From IMG/VR virus record IMGVR_UViG_2698536506_000007: a DNA stretch of 18,447 nucleotides; one strand, 5' to 3'. Positions 3,850-13,677 of this stretch are shown piece after piece. This DNA is from a virus. Its lineage: Duplodnaviria; Heunggongvirae; Uroviricota; Caudoviricetes. The notes under the pieces were generated by a model. The model was not told where the DNA came from, did not search any database, and saw nothing but the letters and a program-made list of their open reading frames with translations. The stretch's first letter is position 1. Each line of letters begins with the position of its first letter. A program made the position numbers and the translations under genes.

Positions 3850-4053
3850 TTACGGCGCTGTTTTAAGTCCTGCCGGGATTTCGTTATTATCCTGGTGAAT
3901 AACTTTATCGACCGGATAACAGTTACCGGGAATTTTCTGTTCATCTGCGGCAGCCATGCATTCTTTCATTGAGCTGTATACGCCAATAACCATGTCAACT
4001 GGTTCACCGGAAACAAGAAAAACCGTCAGAACAAGTGCAAATGTGGTATTCAT
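3850..4053 (-). CDS. Small probably exported protein (about 67 aa; N-terminal hydrophobic signal-like segment MNTTFALVLTVFLVSG)
   Basis: ORF-track ORF 3850-4107 trimmed to the internal ATG at 4051-4053, which overlaps the stop of the upstream gene (ATGA) and is 9 nt from an AAAAAGG run; the alternative start at 4060-4062 has no spacer. Confidence 0.5.
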   Translation of the reverse strand: MNTTFALVLTVFLVSGEPVDMVIGVYSSMKECMAAADEQKIPGNCYPVDKVIHQDNNEIPAGLKTAP

Positions 4054-4238
4054 TGCCAGCATCCTTTTTGCGTCGGGCGTAAACGGGCCAGCATTGAAGC
4101 AATGCATATCTCATTTGATGAATCTGGCTCATGCTTTATCTGATTAATGGCATCCTCAATAAAGTTTTTATCGCCAGTGATAACGCCAATTTCAAAACGA
4201 GTCTCAGGCGTAGTGGAATTGAGTAATAACGTTTCCAT
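4050..4238 (-). CDS. Small hypothetical protein (62 aa), translationally coupled to the next gene
   Basis: Internal ATG at 4236-4238 preceded by GAGGA at 7-nt spacing; stop TGA overlaps the next ATG (ATGA). The longer 107-aa version in the ORF track lacks an SD. Confidence 0.5.
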   Translation of the reverse strand: METLLLNSTTPETRFEIGVITGDKNFIEDAINQIKHEPDSSNEICIASMLARLRPTQKGCWQ

Positions 4239-4430
4239 TATCGCGTCCTCAACAATGAATTTTGTGATGCGGTGCCTGGTGCCTCCAGGTGACGTTAACC
4301 AGTTAACAATTAACGCCGGAATACAGGGACCCGCCTGCAAGTACCTACCCATAAGTATTGATACGGAGAACAAATGGTCTTTTAACTGTTCCGCGTGCGC
4401 TTAGCCGCATTCACCACATCACAAAATTCA

Positions 4431-4475
4431 CTTTAAAAAGGGCGGACATCAGCCAGCAATTAAACTGATGCCGCC
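4431..4475 (-). terminator. Candidate rho-independent terminator for leftward transcription
   Basis: On the minus strand: stem GGCGGCATCAG / CTGATGTCCGCC (one bulge), 12-nt loop, followed by CTTTTTAAA. Confidence 0.4.
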
Positions 4476-4726
4476 AAAGGTCAATACTCAACATGGAGTG
4501 TTGTAGCGGGGTTGTCACTTAAGCGTATGGTCAACCTGCCAACCCGGTGCCACAATGGGGTAAGGATAACCCCGCCATACTTACCGCCGCGCCATTTCGC
4601 GGAGTGCCACAACCGGAAGCGCACGGTCGAAGAAATCTAACGACAAGACTTCTAAGGAAAAGAAACCTTCGCCGTGCGATTTCGTGTTGTGTGCCTGCTT
4701 TTAACCACATCAGGCGAGGTGGTTCC

Positions 4727-4759
4727 TGTTGTTCCCCAACAACAAGAAATTTGTATAAT
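4727..4759 (+). promoter_or_regulatory. Candidate promoter with extended -10 (TGtTATAAT, 4752-4759) preceded by a 7-bp inverted repeat (TGTTGTT-cccc-AACAACA, 4727-4744)
   Basis: Perfect TATAAT with TG at -15/-14, about 32 nt upstream of the ATG at 4791; no convincing -35; the palindrome just upstream could be an operator. Confidence 0.35.
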
Positions 4760-4790
4760 CCGGATACCCCAACAACACAGAGAGTTAAGA

Positions 4791-5309
4791 ATGCTATCTG
4801 GAATAACTTCATCAATAACGGCAATTAAAGTCTCGATTGATTTATTACAGGTAATACTTGATGCAAAAAGCCAATCTGAACGTGAAAAGGCTGTCTACGA
4901 AATGCGTCGCCAACTGGCAGACTTACAAATACAGAACGCAGAGCTAGCGAAAACGCTCGCGCTTCAGTACGAGGAAATACTCTTGCTTAAGCAAAAATGT
5001 CATGAAATTGACGAGCGTAATCGAAAACTTGAATGCTATACGATACACAAAACTGGTTTTGGGCATTTTGTCTATGCTTTCAGGAACAGCCTCGACGAAG
5101 AAGACACATGTTTTCACTATGCCTGTCCCAATTGCTATCAGCATGGTGTAATAGCAATACTTCAACCTGTTGAAATTGGTGAGCATGATAAGTTCCATAT
5201 TTCTAAATGCCTGAAATGTGATTCGCGCTTTAAATTTGAACGCAATGATGACTATATACCGCCCCCATCTGAAGAAGAGATAGGTAGAGCATTGAGCAGC
5301 AATCCGTAG
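4791..5309 (+). CDS. Hypothetical protein (172 aa): N-terminal amphipathic/coiled-coil region plus C-terminal CxxC..CxxC zinc ribbon; opposite orientation to the surrounding early-left operon
   Basis: ORF-track ORF 4674-5309 trimmed to the ATG at 4791 (MLSGITSS...); motifs CPNC and CLKC; own promoter-like element upstream and hairpin plus T-run downstream. Confidence 0.6.
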   Translation: MLSGITSSITAIKVSIDLLQVILDAKSQSEREKAVYEMRRQLADLQIQNAELAKTLALQYEEILLLKQKCHEIDERNRKLECYTIHKTGFGHFVYAFRNSLDEEDTCFHYACPNCYQHGVIAILQPVEIGEHDKFHISKCLKCDSRFKFERNDDYIPPPSEEEIGRALSSNP

Positions 5310-5471: not shown

Positions 5472-6107
5472 TTACCCTTTAAACCAGTCAATCCAGAGTG
5501 GATAGTGTTCAGCATAAATATAGCTATACACATCCAGGTTGTATTTGCGGTCTGTCCTTAGCAGGTCGCAAATACAGGCCGCAGCTTCCAGGGCAGCAGC
5601 TTTGTTGCTGAATAACCATGTAGCAACATTCCGGCGATTATCTGTATCCCACTCTTTTGTGAGGGCTGACACCACGAAGGAGCCGTTGGTGTTGCCATCA
5701 AATACTTCCGTTTCCAGATTTTTAAGTAATGCCTGGTGAATTTTTGCCAGGTATTCAGTCGGAATTTCGCCACGAATTCGGATAAGTTTGTCATAAACAA
5801 ACATGTTCCCCGCATATGGCGATTTTTCTTTCTTTTGTTCACTGGCAGGCTGGTCAATTTCGTCTTCGGTTGGTTTCGTATTGATGTTTTGCACTGTCGT
5901 TTCTGCAATTTTCTTTGCCACACTCTCTGGGTCGTGTTTATTTACAGACGCACAGAAATACAATCCGGTAAACGCATCGTGCACATTACGAGCCATGTTA
6001 TCAATGGTTTCTTTCGTTGCAGATTCAGCCATAGCTTCGTTCAGACGTTGACGTAGTGTGTGTGCTGCAATCTCCTGGATTGATAGCGGTAAATCTTTAA
6101 ATTCCAT
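5472..6107 (-). CDS. Hypothetical early-left protein (about 211 aa)
   Basis: Long ORF; preferred start is the ATG at 6105-6107 (MEFKDL...) with GAGG 6 nt upstream; the ORF-track start at 6119 would overlap the upstream stop (ATGA). Confidence 0.7.
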   Translation of the reverse strand: MEFKDLPLSIQEIAAHTLRQRLNEAMAESATKETIDNMARNVHDAFTGLYFCASVNKHDPESVAKKIAETTVQNINTKPTEDEIDQPASEQKKEKSPYAGNMFVYDKLIRIRGEIPTEYLAKIHQALLKNLETEVFDGNTNGSFVVSALTKEWDTDNRRNVATWLFSNKAAALEAAACICDLLRTDRKYNLDVYSYIYAEHYPLWIDWFKG

Positions 6108-6118
6108 CGTTAACCTCA

Positions 6119-6349
6119 TCAGTCAGTATTTCTGGCTAACCAGCGACGCGCGCCAGCTTCGGTTTTAAACGTTTTGCTTTTGGTATACGTCATCGCGGTG
6201 AACGTACCGTCCTGGTTTGGAAACACGCCGTATACCAGAGATTCGTTGTTGCCAAGATCGATAGTATCCATGCTGACCTCATTTCCCCTTAACGCCGGGG
6301 CAGCGGAACAAAAACCTGCTGCATAGTTAAAGTTGAACCCTGCCGTCAT
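6119..6349 (-). CDS. Small hypothetical early-left protein (76 aa, or 50 aa from the internal ATG at 6269-6271)
   Basis: First ORF downstream of the presumptive leftward promoter region; the internal ATG has a strong SD (GAGG, 6-nt spacing); no arginine-rich N-like motif seen. Confidence 0.5.
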   Translation of the reverse strand: MTAGFNFNYAAGFCSAAPALRGNEVSMDTIDLGNNESLVYGVFPNQDGTFTAMTYTKSKTFKTEAGARRWLARNTD

Positions 6350-6451
6350 GTTCTTACGCCTCGGGCTGGCTACTTACCCCCTGACCACTGCCTGGTAACT
6401 CGAAGTATTGCCCTGCGTTCTGTGGGGCGGGGTGGGTTGGTTGATACAATC

Positions 6452-6501
6452 TACAAATTAAAATTTAATTGGTCAATGATTTTTATCATTAAATTTGTAA
6501 T
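6452..6501. promoter_or_regulatory. Candidate OL-like operator/leftward promoter region
   Basis: Inverted half-sites TACAAATT (6452-6459) and AATTTGTAAT (6492-6501); the 13-mer TTAAATTTGTAAT (6489-6501) recurs exactly at 7731-7743; on the minus strand TTGACC-17-TAGATT is promoter-like (-35 = rc of 6471-6476, -10 = rc of 6448-6453). Confidence 0.35.
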
Positions 6502-6510
6502 TTCGGGCTA

Positions 6511-6539
6511 TTGCATTAGTCCCAAAATGGGACTAACAT
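6511..6539 (+). promoter_or_regulatory. Candidate higBA promoter (TTGCAT-17-TAACAT) with a perfect 9-3-9 palindrome TTAGTCCCA-aaa-TGGGACTAA (6516-6536) in the spacer; predicted leaderless transcript
   Basis: The -10 ends 6 nt before the higB ATG (6546) and there is no SD; the palindrome is positioned like an autoregulatory antitoxin operator. Confidence 0.4.
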
Positions 6540-6545
6540 ACAGTT

Positions 6546-6848
6546 ATGAAGATCATCTCAGTTAAAACGCTCAGGGATTTTTGGGCGGAGAATCCCGATG
6601 CAGAACAACCGCTAAGGGCATGGGTGGATGAGGCAGCAAAAGCTGACTGGAAAAGCCCGGCAGACATTAAGGCGCAATACCGAACGGCCAGTATATTGAA
6701 AAACCGGCGCGTGGTATTCAACATAAAAGGCAACCATTACCGTTTAATTGTTGCAATTGCGTATCAGCGAGGATGGGTATTTGTTAAATTCATCGGAAAC
6801 CATAAGGAATACGATGCCATTGATGCTGATACCATCGAACTGGAGTAA
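6546..6848 (+). CDS. higB: HigB-family (RelE/ParE superfamily) toxin, mRNA interferase (100 aa)
   Basis: C-terminal FNIKGNHYRLIVAIAYQRGWVFVKFIGNHKEYD matches the E. coli K-12 HigB pattern FNVGGNELRVVAMVFF...THKEYD (from memory); toxin-first order, followed 2 nt later by an HTH antitoxin. Confidence 0.85.
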   Translation: MKIISVKTLRDFWAENPDAEQPLRAWVDEAAKADWKSPADIKAQYRTASILKNRRVVFNIKGNHYRLIVAIAYQRGWVFVKFIGNHKEYDAIDADTIELE

Positions 6849-6850
6849 GC

Positions 6851-7210
6851 ATGAACATCAAACCTATTCGTACAGAGCAAGATTATAAAGCCGCGTTGCG
6901 TGCTGTTGAGCCCATGTTCGACAATGAGCCGGAAATTAACACGCCTGAGGGGGATTTCTTTGAGGTAATGTGTTTGCTAATAGAGGAATATGAAAAAAAA
7001 CATTATCCCATTGAGCCACCATCCCCAATTGAAGCTATAAGATTTCGCATGGAACAGCAGGGGCTGACTGTGAAAGATTTGGAACCCGCAATTGGAAAAA
7101 AAAATCGGGTTTACGAGGTGTTGAATGGCACCAGAAGCCTTACGTTACCAATGATTCGCCGCCTTCATAATCAATTTGGTATTCCCCTAGAAAGCCTGGT
7201 GGGGTTATAA
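6851..7210 (+). CDS. higA: HigA-family HTH (XRE-type) antitoxin (119 aa)
   Basis: C-terminal IRFRMEQQGLTVKDLEPAIGKKNRVYEVLNGTRSLTLPMIRRLHNQFGIPLESL parallels the E. coli HigA HTH region; SD GGAG 6 nt upstream; immediately downstream of higB. Confidence 0.85.
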   Translation: MNIKPIRTEQDYKAALRAVEPMFDNEPEINTPEGDFFEVMCLLIEEYEKKHYPIEPPSPIEAIRFRMEQQGLTVKDLEPAIGKKNRVYEVLNGTRSLTLPMIRRLHNQFGIPLESLVGL

Positions 7211-7226
7211 AATCTGTTAGTCATTT

Positions 7227-7277
7227 GCCTGATGCTTGTTCCAGAAAAGGAACGCATCAGGCAGTTTTGTTTTTCTG
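7227..7277 (+). terminator. Rho-independent terminator of higBA, overlapping the 3' end of the convergent repressor gene
   Basis: Long hairpin GCCTGATGCTTGTTCC-agaaaa-GGAACGCATCAGGC followed by AGTTTTGTTTTTCTG. Confidence 0.55.
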
Positions 7278-7649
7278 CCGCAGTAACTCTTCAAGTTTCC
7301 GTTTATAGAAATCGCGTTTTTGCTCCATATCTCGAATGATCTGCTCTGTGTCGCTTTGAGGTAACTCATCTAAAAGCGATATGATTTTTCGTTGTTGTTC
7401 TGTTAGTTGCAGTTGGTTGTTATTACTGGATACAGCCATCTTATCGCCGAGAGTTTCTTCTTCCATAAAGAACCAATGGACGGGATGTTGTGAGAGCTCT
7501 GCTAATTTTTCCAGTTTATCCATTCTTGGCATCACGCCTTTCAACCAACCTTGCACGGATTGGGGTTTCACACCAAGACGTCTTCCCAGCTCTGACTGGT
7601 TTATATTCAATTCCTGCAACACCTGCTGAAGGCGTTTTACAAAGATCAT
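7257..7649 (-). CDS. Phage repressor, short HTH type without an S24 peptidase domain (about 130 aa)
   Basis: HTH motif NQSELGRRLGVKPQSVQGWLKG; divergent from the cro-like gene; SD GAGGGG upstream of the ATG at 7647-7649; C-terminal half looks coiled-coil-like, with no Ala-Gly/Ser-Lys autocleavage module. Confidence 0.8.
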   Translation of the reverse strand: MIFVKRLQQVLQELNINQSELGRRLGVKPQSVQGWLKGVMPRMDKLEKLAELSQHPVHWFFMEEETLGDKMAVSSNNNQLQLTEQQRKIISLLDELPQSDTEQIIRDMEQKRDFYKRKLEELLRQKNKTA

Positions 7650-7703
7650 CACCACCCCTCATAAGCTAATCTCGTAATCCTACAGAAAAAATTGATAGGC
7701 GGC

Positions 7704-7743
7704 ATTACAAATAGAAGTTGAATTTTAAGATTAAATTTGTAAT
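7704..7743. promoter_or_regulatory. Candidate OR-like operator region between the repressor and cro-like genes
   Basis: Inverted 9-mers ATTACAAAT (7704-7712) and ATTTGTAAT (7735-7743), the same half-site as at 6452-6501; rightward promoter-like TTGAAT-17-AATCAT (7718-7746). Confidence 0.4.
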
Positions 7744-7775: not shown

Positions 7776-8048
7776 ATGCAAAGAAGTACTCAAGTGAAAA
7801 TCCTGTCGATAATGAGCCAATCAGAATTAGGGCGTCGTCTTGGTAAAACACCACAAACCATAAGCGGGTGGTTTAAAAAACGAGTTCCTGCAGAGGAGGT
7901 TATTCCAGCATGTGAGGCGCTTGGATGGGGAGTAACTCCGCATGAATTGCGCCCTGATAAATACCCTAACTCAACGGACGGTTTACCTGTTGGATATAAG
8001 GCTAACACACCAAATGCACCGGAGTTGATTCATGAAAATCAAGCATGA
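7776..8048 (+). CDS. Cro/YdaS-like HTH protein (90 aa)
   Basis: HTH SQSELGRRLGKTPQTISGWFKK; divergent from the repressor; strong SD (GGAGGGG); C-terminal ...TPHELRPDKYP resembles the YdaS family as recalled. Confidence 0.8.
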   Translation: MQRSTQVKILSIMSQSELGRRLGKTPQTISGWFKKRVPAEEVIPACEALGWGVTPHELRPDKYPNSTDGLPVGYKANTPNAPELIHENQA

Positions 8049-8457
8049 ACACATCCGCATGGCGATGAATGCCTGGGCACATCTGAACGGTGAAAAAGTT
8101 CCGGCTGCGAAAATTACCAAAGCGTATTTCGAACTCGGTATGACGTTCCCGGAATTGTACGACGACAGCCATCCGGAAGCCCTGGGCCGTAACACCCAGA
8201 AAATTTTCCGCTGGGTGGAGAAAGACACTCCTGATGCGGTTAAAAAAATTCAGGCGTTGTTACCAGCGATCGAAAAAGCGATGCCGCCTCCGCTGGTGGC
8301 CCGAATGCGCAGCCACAGTTCCGCTTATTTTCGGGAGTTGGTAGAGACGAAGGAACGGCTGGTGAAAGATATTGATGATTTCGTTGCATCAGCGATCGTT
8401 CTGTTCGATCAGATGAATCGTGGTGGCCCGGCAGGAAACACTCTGGCTGTGCATTAA
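8032..8457 (+). CDS. YdaT-like protein (141 aa)
   Basis: Starts MKIKHEHI as I recall for Rac YdaT; overlaps the cro/YdaS-like gene by 17 nt; the Cro-like then YdaT-like order matches Rac. Confidence 0.65.
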   Translation: MKIKHEHIRMAMNAWAHLNGEKVPAAKITKAYFELGMTFPELYDDSHPEALGRNTQKIFRWVEKDTPDAVKKIQALLPAIEKAMPPPLVARMRSHSSAYFRELVETKERLVKDIDDFVASAIVLFDQMNRGGPAGNTLAVH

Positions 8458-13641: not shown

Positions 13642-13651
13642 TAAATAAAAA

Positions 13652-13677
13652 CCCCGGACTATCAATCCGGGGTTTTT
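13652..13677 (+). terminator. Rho-independent terminator ending the rightward nin-like gene chain
   Basis: CCCCGGA-ctatcaa-TCCGGGG followed by TTTTT. Confidence 0.7.

Follow-up and report, generated by a model that had tools for sequence, protein, structure and literature searches.

The 18,447-nucleotide stretch of DNA analysed here (IMG/VR record IMGVR_UViG_2698536506_000007, Caudoviricetes), which in its full length is called the window, comes from a Rac/Qin-like lambdoid prophage of Escherichia coli, in whose immunity region two adjacent genes, higB and higA, form an accessory gene unit (moron). The gene pair is a HigB/HigA type II toxin-antitoxin (TA) module with the toxin gene first, and its coordinates, together with those of the surrounding control elements, are collected in Table 1. 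As a gene pair it belongs to the routinely annotated HigBA systems, and the rexAB slot of lambdoid prophages is already known to hold TA or defence genes. The noteworthy part is the regulatory architecture, in which the promoter of the toxin gene lies under the operator of the antitoxin, the toxin mRNA is predicted to be leaderless and higA has a normal ribosome-binding site, and the subfamily concerned is spread over Beta- and Gammaproteobacteria, their plasmids and their phages.

Table 1. Features of the higBA cassette and its surroundings in the window (strand: +, plus; -, minus;., not directional)
Feature	Position	Strand	Basis
-35 hexamer TTGCAT of the higB promoter	6511..6516	+	sequence and family conservation
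-10 hexamer TAACAT, which shares bases with the right operator arm	6534..6539	+	TAnnnT conservation in the family
Perfect 9-3-9 palindrome TTAGTCCCA-AAA-TGGGACTAA, putative HigA (or HigB-HigA) operator	6516..6536	.	conserved core GTCCC-N5-GGGAC at 6519-6533
Predicted transcription start, A of the higB ATG (leaderless mRNA)	6546	+	position of the -10 hexamer
higB, 100-aa RelE-fold toxin	6546..6848	+	PF09907
Shine-Dalgarno sequence GGAG of higA, in the last higB codons	6842..6845	+	5 nt 5′ of the higA ATG
higA, 119-aa antitoxin/repressor with C-terminal helix-turn-helix	6851..7210	+	HTH_3 at residues 63-115
Intrinsic higBA terminator, hairpin 7225-7264 plus TTTTGTTTTT at 7265-7274	7225..7274	+	folding, inverted repeat
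PL-like leftward early promoter TTGACC-17-TAGATT	6448..6476	-	consensus scan, 9/12
OL-like operator repeats of the prophage repressor	6452..6501	.	direct and inverted repeats shared with 7706-7743 (repressor/cro intergenic region)
Convergent prophage repressor, DicA/RacR-like	7257..7655	-	HTH_3, 6.5e-9; NCBIfam DicA, 5.8e-14, below cutoff

The toxin matches the HigB_toxin family PF09907 over the entire profile (positions 1-74 of 74) with an E value of 4.8e-33 and 113.7 bits against a cutoff of 27, and aligns with the HigB of K-12/Shigella deposited in the Protein Data Bank (PDB) with an E value of 3e-7. In this line, its AF2 model (pLDDT 87.1) retrieved with Foldseek the structures 5ifg_A, 6kml and 5ycl_B as top matches (TM 0.80-0.85, rmsd 1.3-1.8 Å, 93 residues), the best superposition being that with 5ifg_A, the K-12 HigB, at a TM of 0.85 and an rmsd of 1.3 Å. 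HigA aligns through residues 6-112 with the HigA of K-12/Shigella (5ifg, 5ycl; E value 2e-9), and its gene begins 2 nt 3′ of the higB stop codon. Neither HigB nor HigA found a match in NCBIfam. Both open reading frames (ORFs) are intact and HigB retains the residues that are invariant in the family. The identification as a HigB/HigA-like TA pair, already made in a preliminary description of this DNA, is thus borne out by PF09907, HTH_3, the PDB alignments and the superposition of the model, and HigB would be the toxic protein and HigA the one that neutralises it. On the opposite strand, inside higA, there is a promoter-like TCAACA-16-TATAAT (6882-6909, minus strand) directed towards higB and PL, which with 10/12 positions is the best match to the consensus between 6100 and 8100; it overlaps the codons of the conserved DYKAALRAVE motif and may be a by-product of coding.

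Just upstream of higB, the same description had reported a TTGCAT-17-TAACAT promoter, a 6-nt gap devoid of a Shine-Dalgarno (SD) sequence and a perfect 9-3-9 palindrome, and each of these elements is confirmed in place. The two hexamers are separated by 17 nt, and the palindrome occupies this spacer together with the first three bases of the -10 hexamer. Only the six nucleotides ACAGTT stand between the -10 hexamer and the ATG; they contain no SD-like 4-mer and the gap is too short to hold an SD. An in-frame TAA at 6534-6536 ruled out an upstream start codon or an N-terminal extension of HigB, as did the conservation of its N-terminus, since MKIISVKTL is kept in the family and the alignment with the K-12 HigB begins at residue 1. 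In the predicted fold, moreover, the putative leaderless RNA is unpaired over its first ~10 nt. Perfect inverted repeats of 9 nt with a spacer of at most 10 nt occur at five places in the window, where 0.58 would be expected, so that the higB palindrome is non-random, yet not unique in the window. The four other perfect repeats (at least 9 nt, spacer of at most 10 nt), at 1510-1527, 13649-13675, 17355-17378 and 17515-17537, could be terminators or operators. A second HigA site, which would point to control of phage genes by HigA, was not found in the window, where 6516-6536 is the sole perfect copy and the other match, with one mismatch, is at the level of chance. We also considered the palindrome as an operator of the phage repressor and rejected this, given that its sequence is unlike the OL/OR repeats and that it accompanies higBA outside phages as well. 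Close E. coli relatives keep only the core AGTCCC(A/G)AAATGGGACTA while the outer positions of the palindrome vary, and their -10 hexamer appears as TACCAT or TACTAT. Judged alone, the putative promoter of the window is at the level of chance, and its weight comes from conservation across the family.

This conservation was followed in 81 loci, namely the window and 80 loci from a collection with one genome per species, in which HigB is 60-87% identical and which represent Enterobacterales, many Betaproteobacteria, Pseudomonas and others; 19 HigB relatives were aligned, and a wider set of 139 non-redundant upstream regions joined the genome loci with IMG/VR phage contigs and other contexts. A higA partner was found for 78 of the 80 collection loci, with lengths of 96-178 aa and mostly of 118-134 aa. 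The motif nTCCC-N5-GGGAn lies just 5′ of the start codon in 80 of 81 loci, and its core is present in 136 of the 139 upstream regions. Directly 3′ of GGGAn there is a TAnnnT hexamer in 73 of 80 loci, which is separated from the start codon by 6 nt in 39 loci and by 7 nt in 31 (70 together), whereas a TTG is found 16-18 nt 5′ of the -10 hexamer in ~70 of 81 loci; the start codon is ATG in 74 of 81. Column by column, the information content peaks at the TTG, at (A)GTCCCA…TGGGAC and at the T, A and T of the -10 hexamer (93-97% conserved), and falls to ~0 on the 5′ side of the -35 and in the gap from the -10 to the ATG. Divergence has thus randomised the flanks, while the elements and their spacing to the start codon were kept.

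The exceptions to this geometry follow a pattern of their own. A gap of 5-8 nt is seen in 115 of the 139 upstream regions, 105 of them with TAnnnT, and in 17 others a leader of 23-40 nt has been inserted after the same hexamer, 15 of these 17 leaders holding an SD (e.g. …GGGACTACTATactttcagtgagAAGGAatctgtgATG). Such an association of SD and leader is what would be expected if transcription begins just 3′ of the -10 hexamer. The leadered variants (loci L092, L127-L133, L141-L145 and L148-L153) represent natural 'leadered' alleles. An SD-like 4-mer precedes higA in 67 of 77 loci, compared with 12 of 77 for higB, and all 12 of the latter are -10 hexamers of the TAGGAT type. Altogether, the reading of the toxin mRNA as leaderless, put forward in the preliminary description, gains strong support from the comparison, in which the geometry recurs in ~85% of the diverged members and the leadered exceptions carry an SD. 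The view of the palindrome as a likely HigA operator is likewise favoured by its conservation in the family and by the symmetric changes of its arms, which covary (G..C in 65, C..G in 5, T..A in 5 and A..T in 2, against 17 asymmetric cases); symmetric half-site changes of this kind would fit a dimeric binder. Both HigA and HigBA have been described to bind promoter palindromes (PMC11980606). On the basis of this comparison, an operator-gated leaderless toxin promoter is probably a conserved property of this HigBA subfamily, and one that the alignments support well. In a literature search of incomplete coverage we found no description of a leaderless HigB or higBA or of the operator motif, and only mycobacterial, MazF and unrelated papers were recovered.

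From these observations we infer a mechanism that extends from HigA binding and the transcription start to the stoichiometry of the two proteins, the toxicity of HigB and the biological role of the module. Its best explanation, which we hold to be quite probable, is an autonomous and autoregulated type II HigBA (PF09907) cassette, carried as a moron, with a leaderless toxin mRNA. RNA polymerase would use TTGCAT-17-TAACAT, and a HigA dimer or the HigB-HigA complex would bind GTCCCA-N3-TGGGAC in the spacer and -10 region and so repress its own operon. Transcription would begin at the A of the higB ATG or at most 1 nt from it, so that the toxin would be translated from a leaderless mRNA, a process inefficient in enterobacteria, and higA from its strong internal GGAG; antitoxin would thereby be in excess although the toxin gene comes first. 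Termination of the transcript is expected at 7225-7274, where the hairpin and U-tract reach a short way into the 3′ end of the repressor gene that converges on higBA, and free HigB would cleave ribosome-bound mRNA, like the K-12 HigB. Leaderless genes are rare in enterobacteria, and the mRNA of lambda cI made from PRM is a classic leaderless mRNA in E. coli. It is likely that a leaderless toxin gene is a general solution, throughout this HigBA subfamily in Proteobacteria, to the need for antitoxin excess in toxin-first operons, and, were this true, more than 100 conserved examples would offer a simple and testable answer to that problem, as well as a natural model of leaderless translation beyond lambda cI.

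A comparison with known systems helps to place the cassette. With the HigBA of K-12/Shigella (YgjN-YgjM; 5ifg, 6kml, 5ycl) it shares PF09907, the fold (TM 0.85), the toxin-first order, a HigA whose helix-turn-helix motif (HTH) lies in the C-terminal half and, as seen upstream of the K-12 higB, a 9-3-9 promoter palindrome (CGTTGCCA-ATC-TGGCAACG). However, the two systems are only 28% identical, the K-12 HigA has 138 aa compared with 119 aa in the window, and the operator half-site reads TTGCCA in K-12 and GTCCCA in the window. Moreover, the K-12 higB has a second palindrome and ~30 nt between a -10-like TATCAT and the ATG, and is therefore not leaderless, and the K-12 genes are chromosomal and outside a prophage, whereas the cassette of the window lies within one. 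PADLOC, on the other hand, assigned HigB to PD-Lambda-2_A (PDLC03979; 1.1e-40, positions 1-96 of 97) and HigA to PD-Lambda-2_B (1.4e-42), the latter only through positions 1-119 of a 402-position profile. For defence, PD-lambda-2 needs a B component fused to an Xre-peptidase (ImmA/IrrE-type) and a third gene related to a P4 antitoxin, and in that system the toxic component was B and not A (Vassallo et al. 2022, PMC9519451). Membership in PD-lambda-2 was rejected, as HigA has no C-terminal peptidase domain and there is no third gene, with only 46 nt left before the repressor stop codon.

The HigBAC systems of lambdoid prophages (Stx phages of the H-19B/BP-4795 type; HigBAC of E. coli NT1F31) have a HigB 42% and a HigA core 43% identical to those of the window, a location between the repressor and PL/N and, in BP-4795, the same operator core TCCC-N5-GGGA. 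They differ in having three genes, with a 218-aa HigA that is extended at its C terminus and a gene for a SecB-like chaperone, placed on the same strand downstream of cI in BP-4795, whereas the window has two genes on the opposite strand with their own terminator. The alignment of both HigA proteins ends at residue 117 in the window and 120 in BP-4795, and the third gene of BP-4795 matches PD-T4-9_C, to which nothing in the window is comparable. Upstream of the toxin gene in BP-4795 (L091, 2940-3000) there are two TTCCC-N5-GGGAA palindromes with a TATAAT before the second; judging by this sequence, the toxin gene of that HigBAC is probably leadered. Assignment of the window module to HigBAC was discarded too, since its 119-aa HigA is without the chaperone-addiction extension and no ORF for a SecB-like chaperone follows downstream. 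A lambdoid-prophage HigBAC, located at a variable site for defence genes that lies downstream of cI, protects from lambda-vir and from Bas25; its protection against lambda-vir acts through the tail protein gpV (bioRxiv 10.1101/2024.02.24.581848).

The paaR2-paaA2-parE2 genes of CP-933P belong to a Rac-like prophage and likewise make up a type II TA system in its immunity region, where ydaS/ydaT stand opposite a CI-like repressor; they encode, however, a ParE toxin, and the repressor both shares its PRM transcript with the TA genes and regulates them (PMC8630535). In CP-933P it is the repressor gene that is leaderless; the repressor gene of the window, by contrast, is preceded by an SD, and the gene predicted to be leaderless there is that of the toxin. 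As HigBAC and paaR2-paaA2-parE2 occur there, a TA module in the rexAB slot has precedent. With rexAB of lambda itself, the higBA of the window shares the map position of an accessory, non-essential module; the rexAB genes are unrelated to higBA in sequence and are transcribed with cI. What is distinct in the window with respect to these precedents is the two-gene form, the opposite orientation, the own terminator and the predicted leaderless toxin gene.

The gene map, the PL/OL repeats and the DicA-like repressor agree with the earlier placement of the pair in a rexAB-like slot, convergent to the repressor: higBA is bounded by the PL/OL-like region on one side and by the 3′ end of the repressor gene on the other, on the strand opposite to that gene, and with its own promoter and terminator it is not co-transcribed with the repressor on the same strand, unlike rexAB, paaA2-parE2 and HigBAC. 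The PL-like promoter is directed into a DUF1391/ydfA-like gene (6119-6349) and stands back-to-back with the higB promoter. Half-sites ATTACAAAT and ATTTGTAAT of the OL/OR repeats flank the -35 of PL and that of the cro promoter (6452-6501 and 7706-7743), and, because the distal OL half-site ATTTGTAAT at 6493-6501 ends 9 bp from the -35 of higB downstream, PL and the higB promoter (PhigB) are back-to-back in one control region. To the left, the DUF1391/ydfA-like gene is followed by a dicB-like gene, an exonuclease, xis and int; to the right are the DicA-like HTH repressor, a YdaS-like cro (7776-8048) and a YdaT-like cII (8032-8457). The repressor consists of an HTH and a helical tail without an S24 peptidase domain, which suggests induction by an antirepressor and not by RecA-stimulated cleavage. 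Its likely start is the ATG at 7649, preceded by the SD GAGGGG, and the PGAP annotation in E. coli gives 130 aa; with this SD it is unlike lambda cI and PaaR2.

At the other end of the cassette, the claim of a terminator hairpin overlapping the last codons of the repressor holds by both sequence and folding. The hairpin has 15 pairs plus a G-U pair and a 2-nt bulge, and the 81-nt segment that contains it folds with -26 kcal/mol (z = -4.1 against shuffles); the consensus scanner called no higBA terminator, the stem being bulged. Only 46 nt separate the higA stop codon from the convergent repressor stop codon, which lies at 7257-7259 (minus strand) in the 3′ arm of the hairpin, so that the terminator covers this stop and the last five repressor codons, and the T-run is the complement of those last codons (…QKNKTA*). 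On the minus-strand side the hairpin is followed by AAAUGAC and by no U-tract, and the consensus scan called no minus-strand terminator in 6100-7257; from this sequence, repressor transcripts may run on antisense through higA and higB. The hairpin is kept in the E. coli copies and absent from cassettes in other contexts. The terminator was consequently rejected as a part of the mobile cassette: the sequences 3′ of higA are unrelated between contexts, which makes the repressor-overlapping terminator specific to the prophage lineage.

In E. coli the module is found in 148 of 5,426 complete genomes, and the repressor/OR segment in the same 148, as a query made of both segments was matched over at least 80% of its length at 148 places, with a distant search mode included. 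Carriers of the module include E. coli O26:H11 11368 (NC_013361) and O103:H2 12009 (NC_013353). The exact HigB protein is widespread on E. coli chromosomes. Even with the distant search mode, the 5,426 E. coli genomes yielded no relative of the repressor that lacks higBA (an empty site), and repressor matches in the phage collection are at most 46% identical. Among the E. coli carriers, mosaicism is seen in the genes further left and in the replication genes on the right. The linkage of higBA with this repressor in E. coli traces to one lineage. Between the window and the E. coli copies, higB has 7-10 nucleotide differences and no amino-acid change, and among 30 copies the polymorphic codons with synonymous changes only, compared with those that change an amino acid, number 17 and 9 in higB, 42 and 8 in higA, and 19 and 17 in the repressor, which in sequence terms are signs of purifying selection on higBA. 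Elsewhere, the same subfamily is met on plasmids, where par, H-NS and hok genes adjoin it, in a Klebsiella chromosome and in many phage slots, one of them in a Salmonella prophage (L096-L099, genes around 4001-4668 and 7851-8303) between the tape-measure and minor-tail genes. That Salmonella prophage has a second TA pair (a PF05015 or PF06296 toxin with an HTH protein) across the tape-measure gene. A recurrent placement of the cassette beside repressors was not seen in other phages, where most of the genes around it belong to the tail or other late functions. As a unit, the cassette is autonomous and mobile.

Several observations weigh against the proposed mechanism. Of the 12 positions of the sigma-70 consensus, the hexamers of the window match only 7, and no higB promoter was called by the consensus scanner; five members of the family start with GTG, a poor start codon on leaderless mRNA in E. 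coli; the Pseudomonas-type TAGGAT, 6 nt from the ATG, could act as an SD for a transcript begun further upstream; the cassettes are all homologous, so that conservation shows a constraint on the positions and not its nature; and, as the HigA-like and not the HigB-like protein is toxic in the related PD-lambda-2 (PMC9519451), the roles within the clade are not to be assumed. The low-scoring hexamers, the resemblance of TAGGAT to an SD at the correct spacing and the clear leaders of some family members would all suit a higB that is not leaderless, with a promoter within OL or further off and a palindrome-containing leader that has either no canonical SD or the -10-like hexamer as a weak one. This alternative is rather unlikely, however, as the sequence 5′ of the -35 is unrelated among loci, which leaves no shared upstream promoter, TTG-(16-18)-TAnnnT and its fixed distance to the start codon are conserved, an SD appears only where a leader was inserted 3′ of the same hexamer, and the upstream region of the window is taken up by the divergent PL/OL. 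Highly improbable is the view of higBA as a decaying, non-functional remnant: the prophage looks Rac/Qin-like and many such prophages are cryptic, but both ORFs are intact with their family-invariant residues, the polymorphic codons are mostly synonymous-only (17 of 26 in higB, 42 of 50 in higA) and those diverged E. coli alleles that were inspected retain the core of the promoter. The preliminary description had further raised the possibility that read-through of higBA, antisense to the repressor mRNA, lets TA activity and immunity regulate each other. The genes are indeed convergent with the terminator within the last repressor codons, and this arrangement is kept in all E. coli copies; these copies, however, are one lineage with ~95% identity, so that the arrangement counts as a single event, and other phages carry the cassette in many unrelated slots away from repressors. 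In addition, the plus-strand terminator is canonical (long GC-rich stem and U-tract) with low read-through expected, the higB promoter is expected to be autorepressed and, with no U-tract on the minus strand, antisense RNA is likelier to come from the repressor gene into higAB. The proposal thus found no support and we regard it as very unlikely. A related wiring to the lysogenic switch, in which, in a lysogen, occupancy of the shared PL/PhigB control region by the repressor and transcription of the repressor gene, running antisense through higA and higB, would set the level of the leaderless toxin mRNA, is also improbable, if slightly less so; were it true, loss of the repressor on induction, or superinfection, would shift the toxin:antitoxin balance and the module would be an immunity-coupled abortive or anti-induction device.

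Regarding the biological role, stabilisation of the prophage or of its immunity module, abortive-infection defence, or both, are most likely, and a phage-defence role is plausible by analogy. A mainly anti-phage abortive infection, as with the other modules of the rexAB slot, in which infection lowers HigA or frees HigB and translation is shut down, is compatible with the molecular mechanism proposed here. It would be in keeping with the scores of HigB and HigA against the PADLOC PD-Lambda-2 A and B profiles (1e-40 and 1e-42), with the presence of 42-43% identical HigB/HigA and a SecB-like chaperone directly downstream of cI in Stx phages of the H-19B/BP-4795 type, and with the defence against lambda-vir and Bas25 by HigBAC in the same slot (bioRxiv 10.1101/2024.02.24.581848). 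Nevertheless, the module lacks the parts by which those systems sense phage or which they need for defence (for PD-lambda-2, the third gene and the peptidase domain; for HigBAC, the SecB-like chaperone and the chaperone-addiction extension), and the plasmid cassettes beside partition genes and hok suggest addiction; as the main role, abortive infection is thus a tentative possibility. We see addiction or stabilisation, in which cells that lose the prophage or its immunity module retain stable HigB, as possible to the same limited degree. The joint presence of higBA and repressor/OR in 148 of 148 E. coli carriers, while the genes on the left and the replication genes on the right are mosaic, and the par and hok genes adjoining the plasmid-borne relatives speak for it, but the linkage is explicable by the 46 bp distance and a single acquisition, and there is no empty-site relative to compare.

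Some minor observations concern the rest of the window. The cro-like and cII-like genes (7776-8457) bear the Pfam names 'YdaS_toxin' and 'YdaT_toxin', and their position together with the literature (PMC8630535, PMC5917428) indicates that their products are switch regulators rather than toxins. An Rfam scan of the whole window found no family. Between the dicB-like and DUF1391 genes there are two ORFs of 211 aa (4674-5309, plus strand) and 215 aa (5472-6119, minus strand), annotated as hypothetical in E. coli and without a match in Pfam, NCBIfam or PADLOC, and the stretch that holds them is mosaic between prophages.

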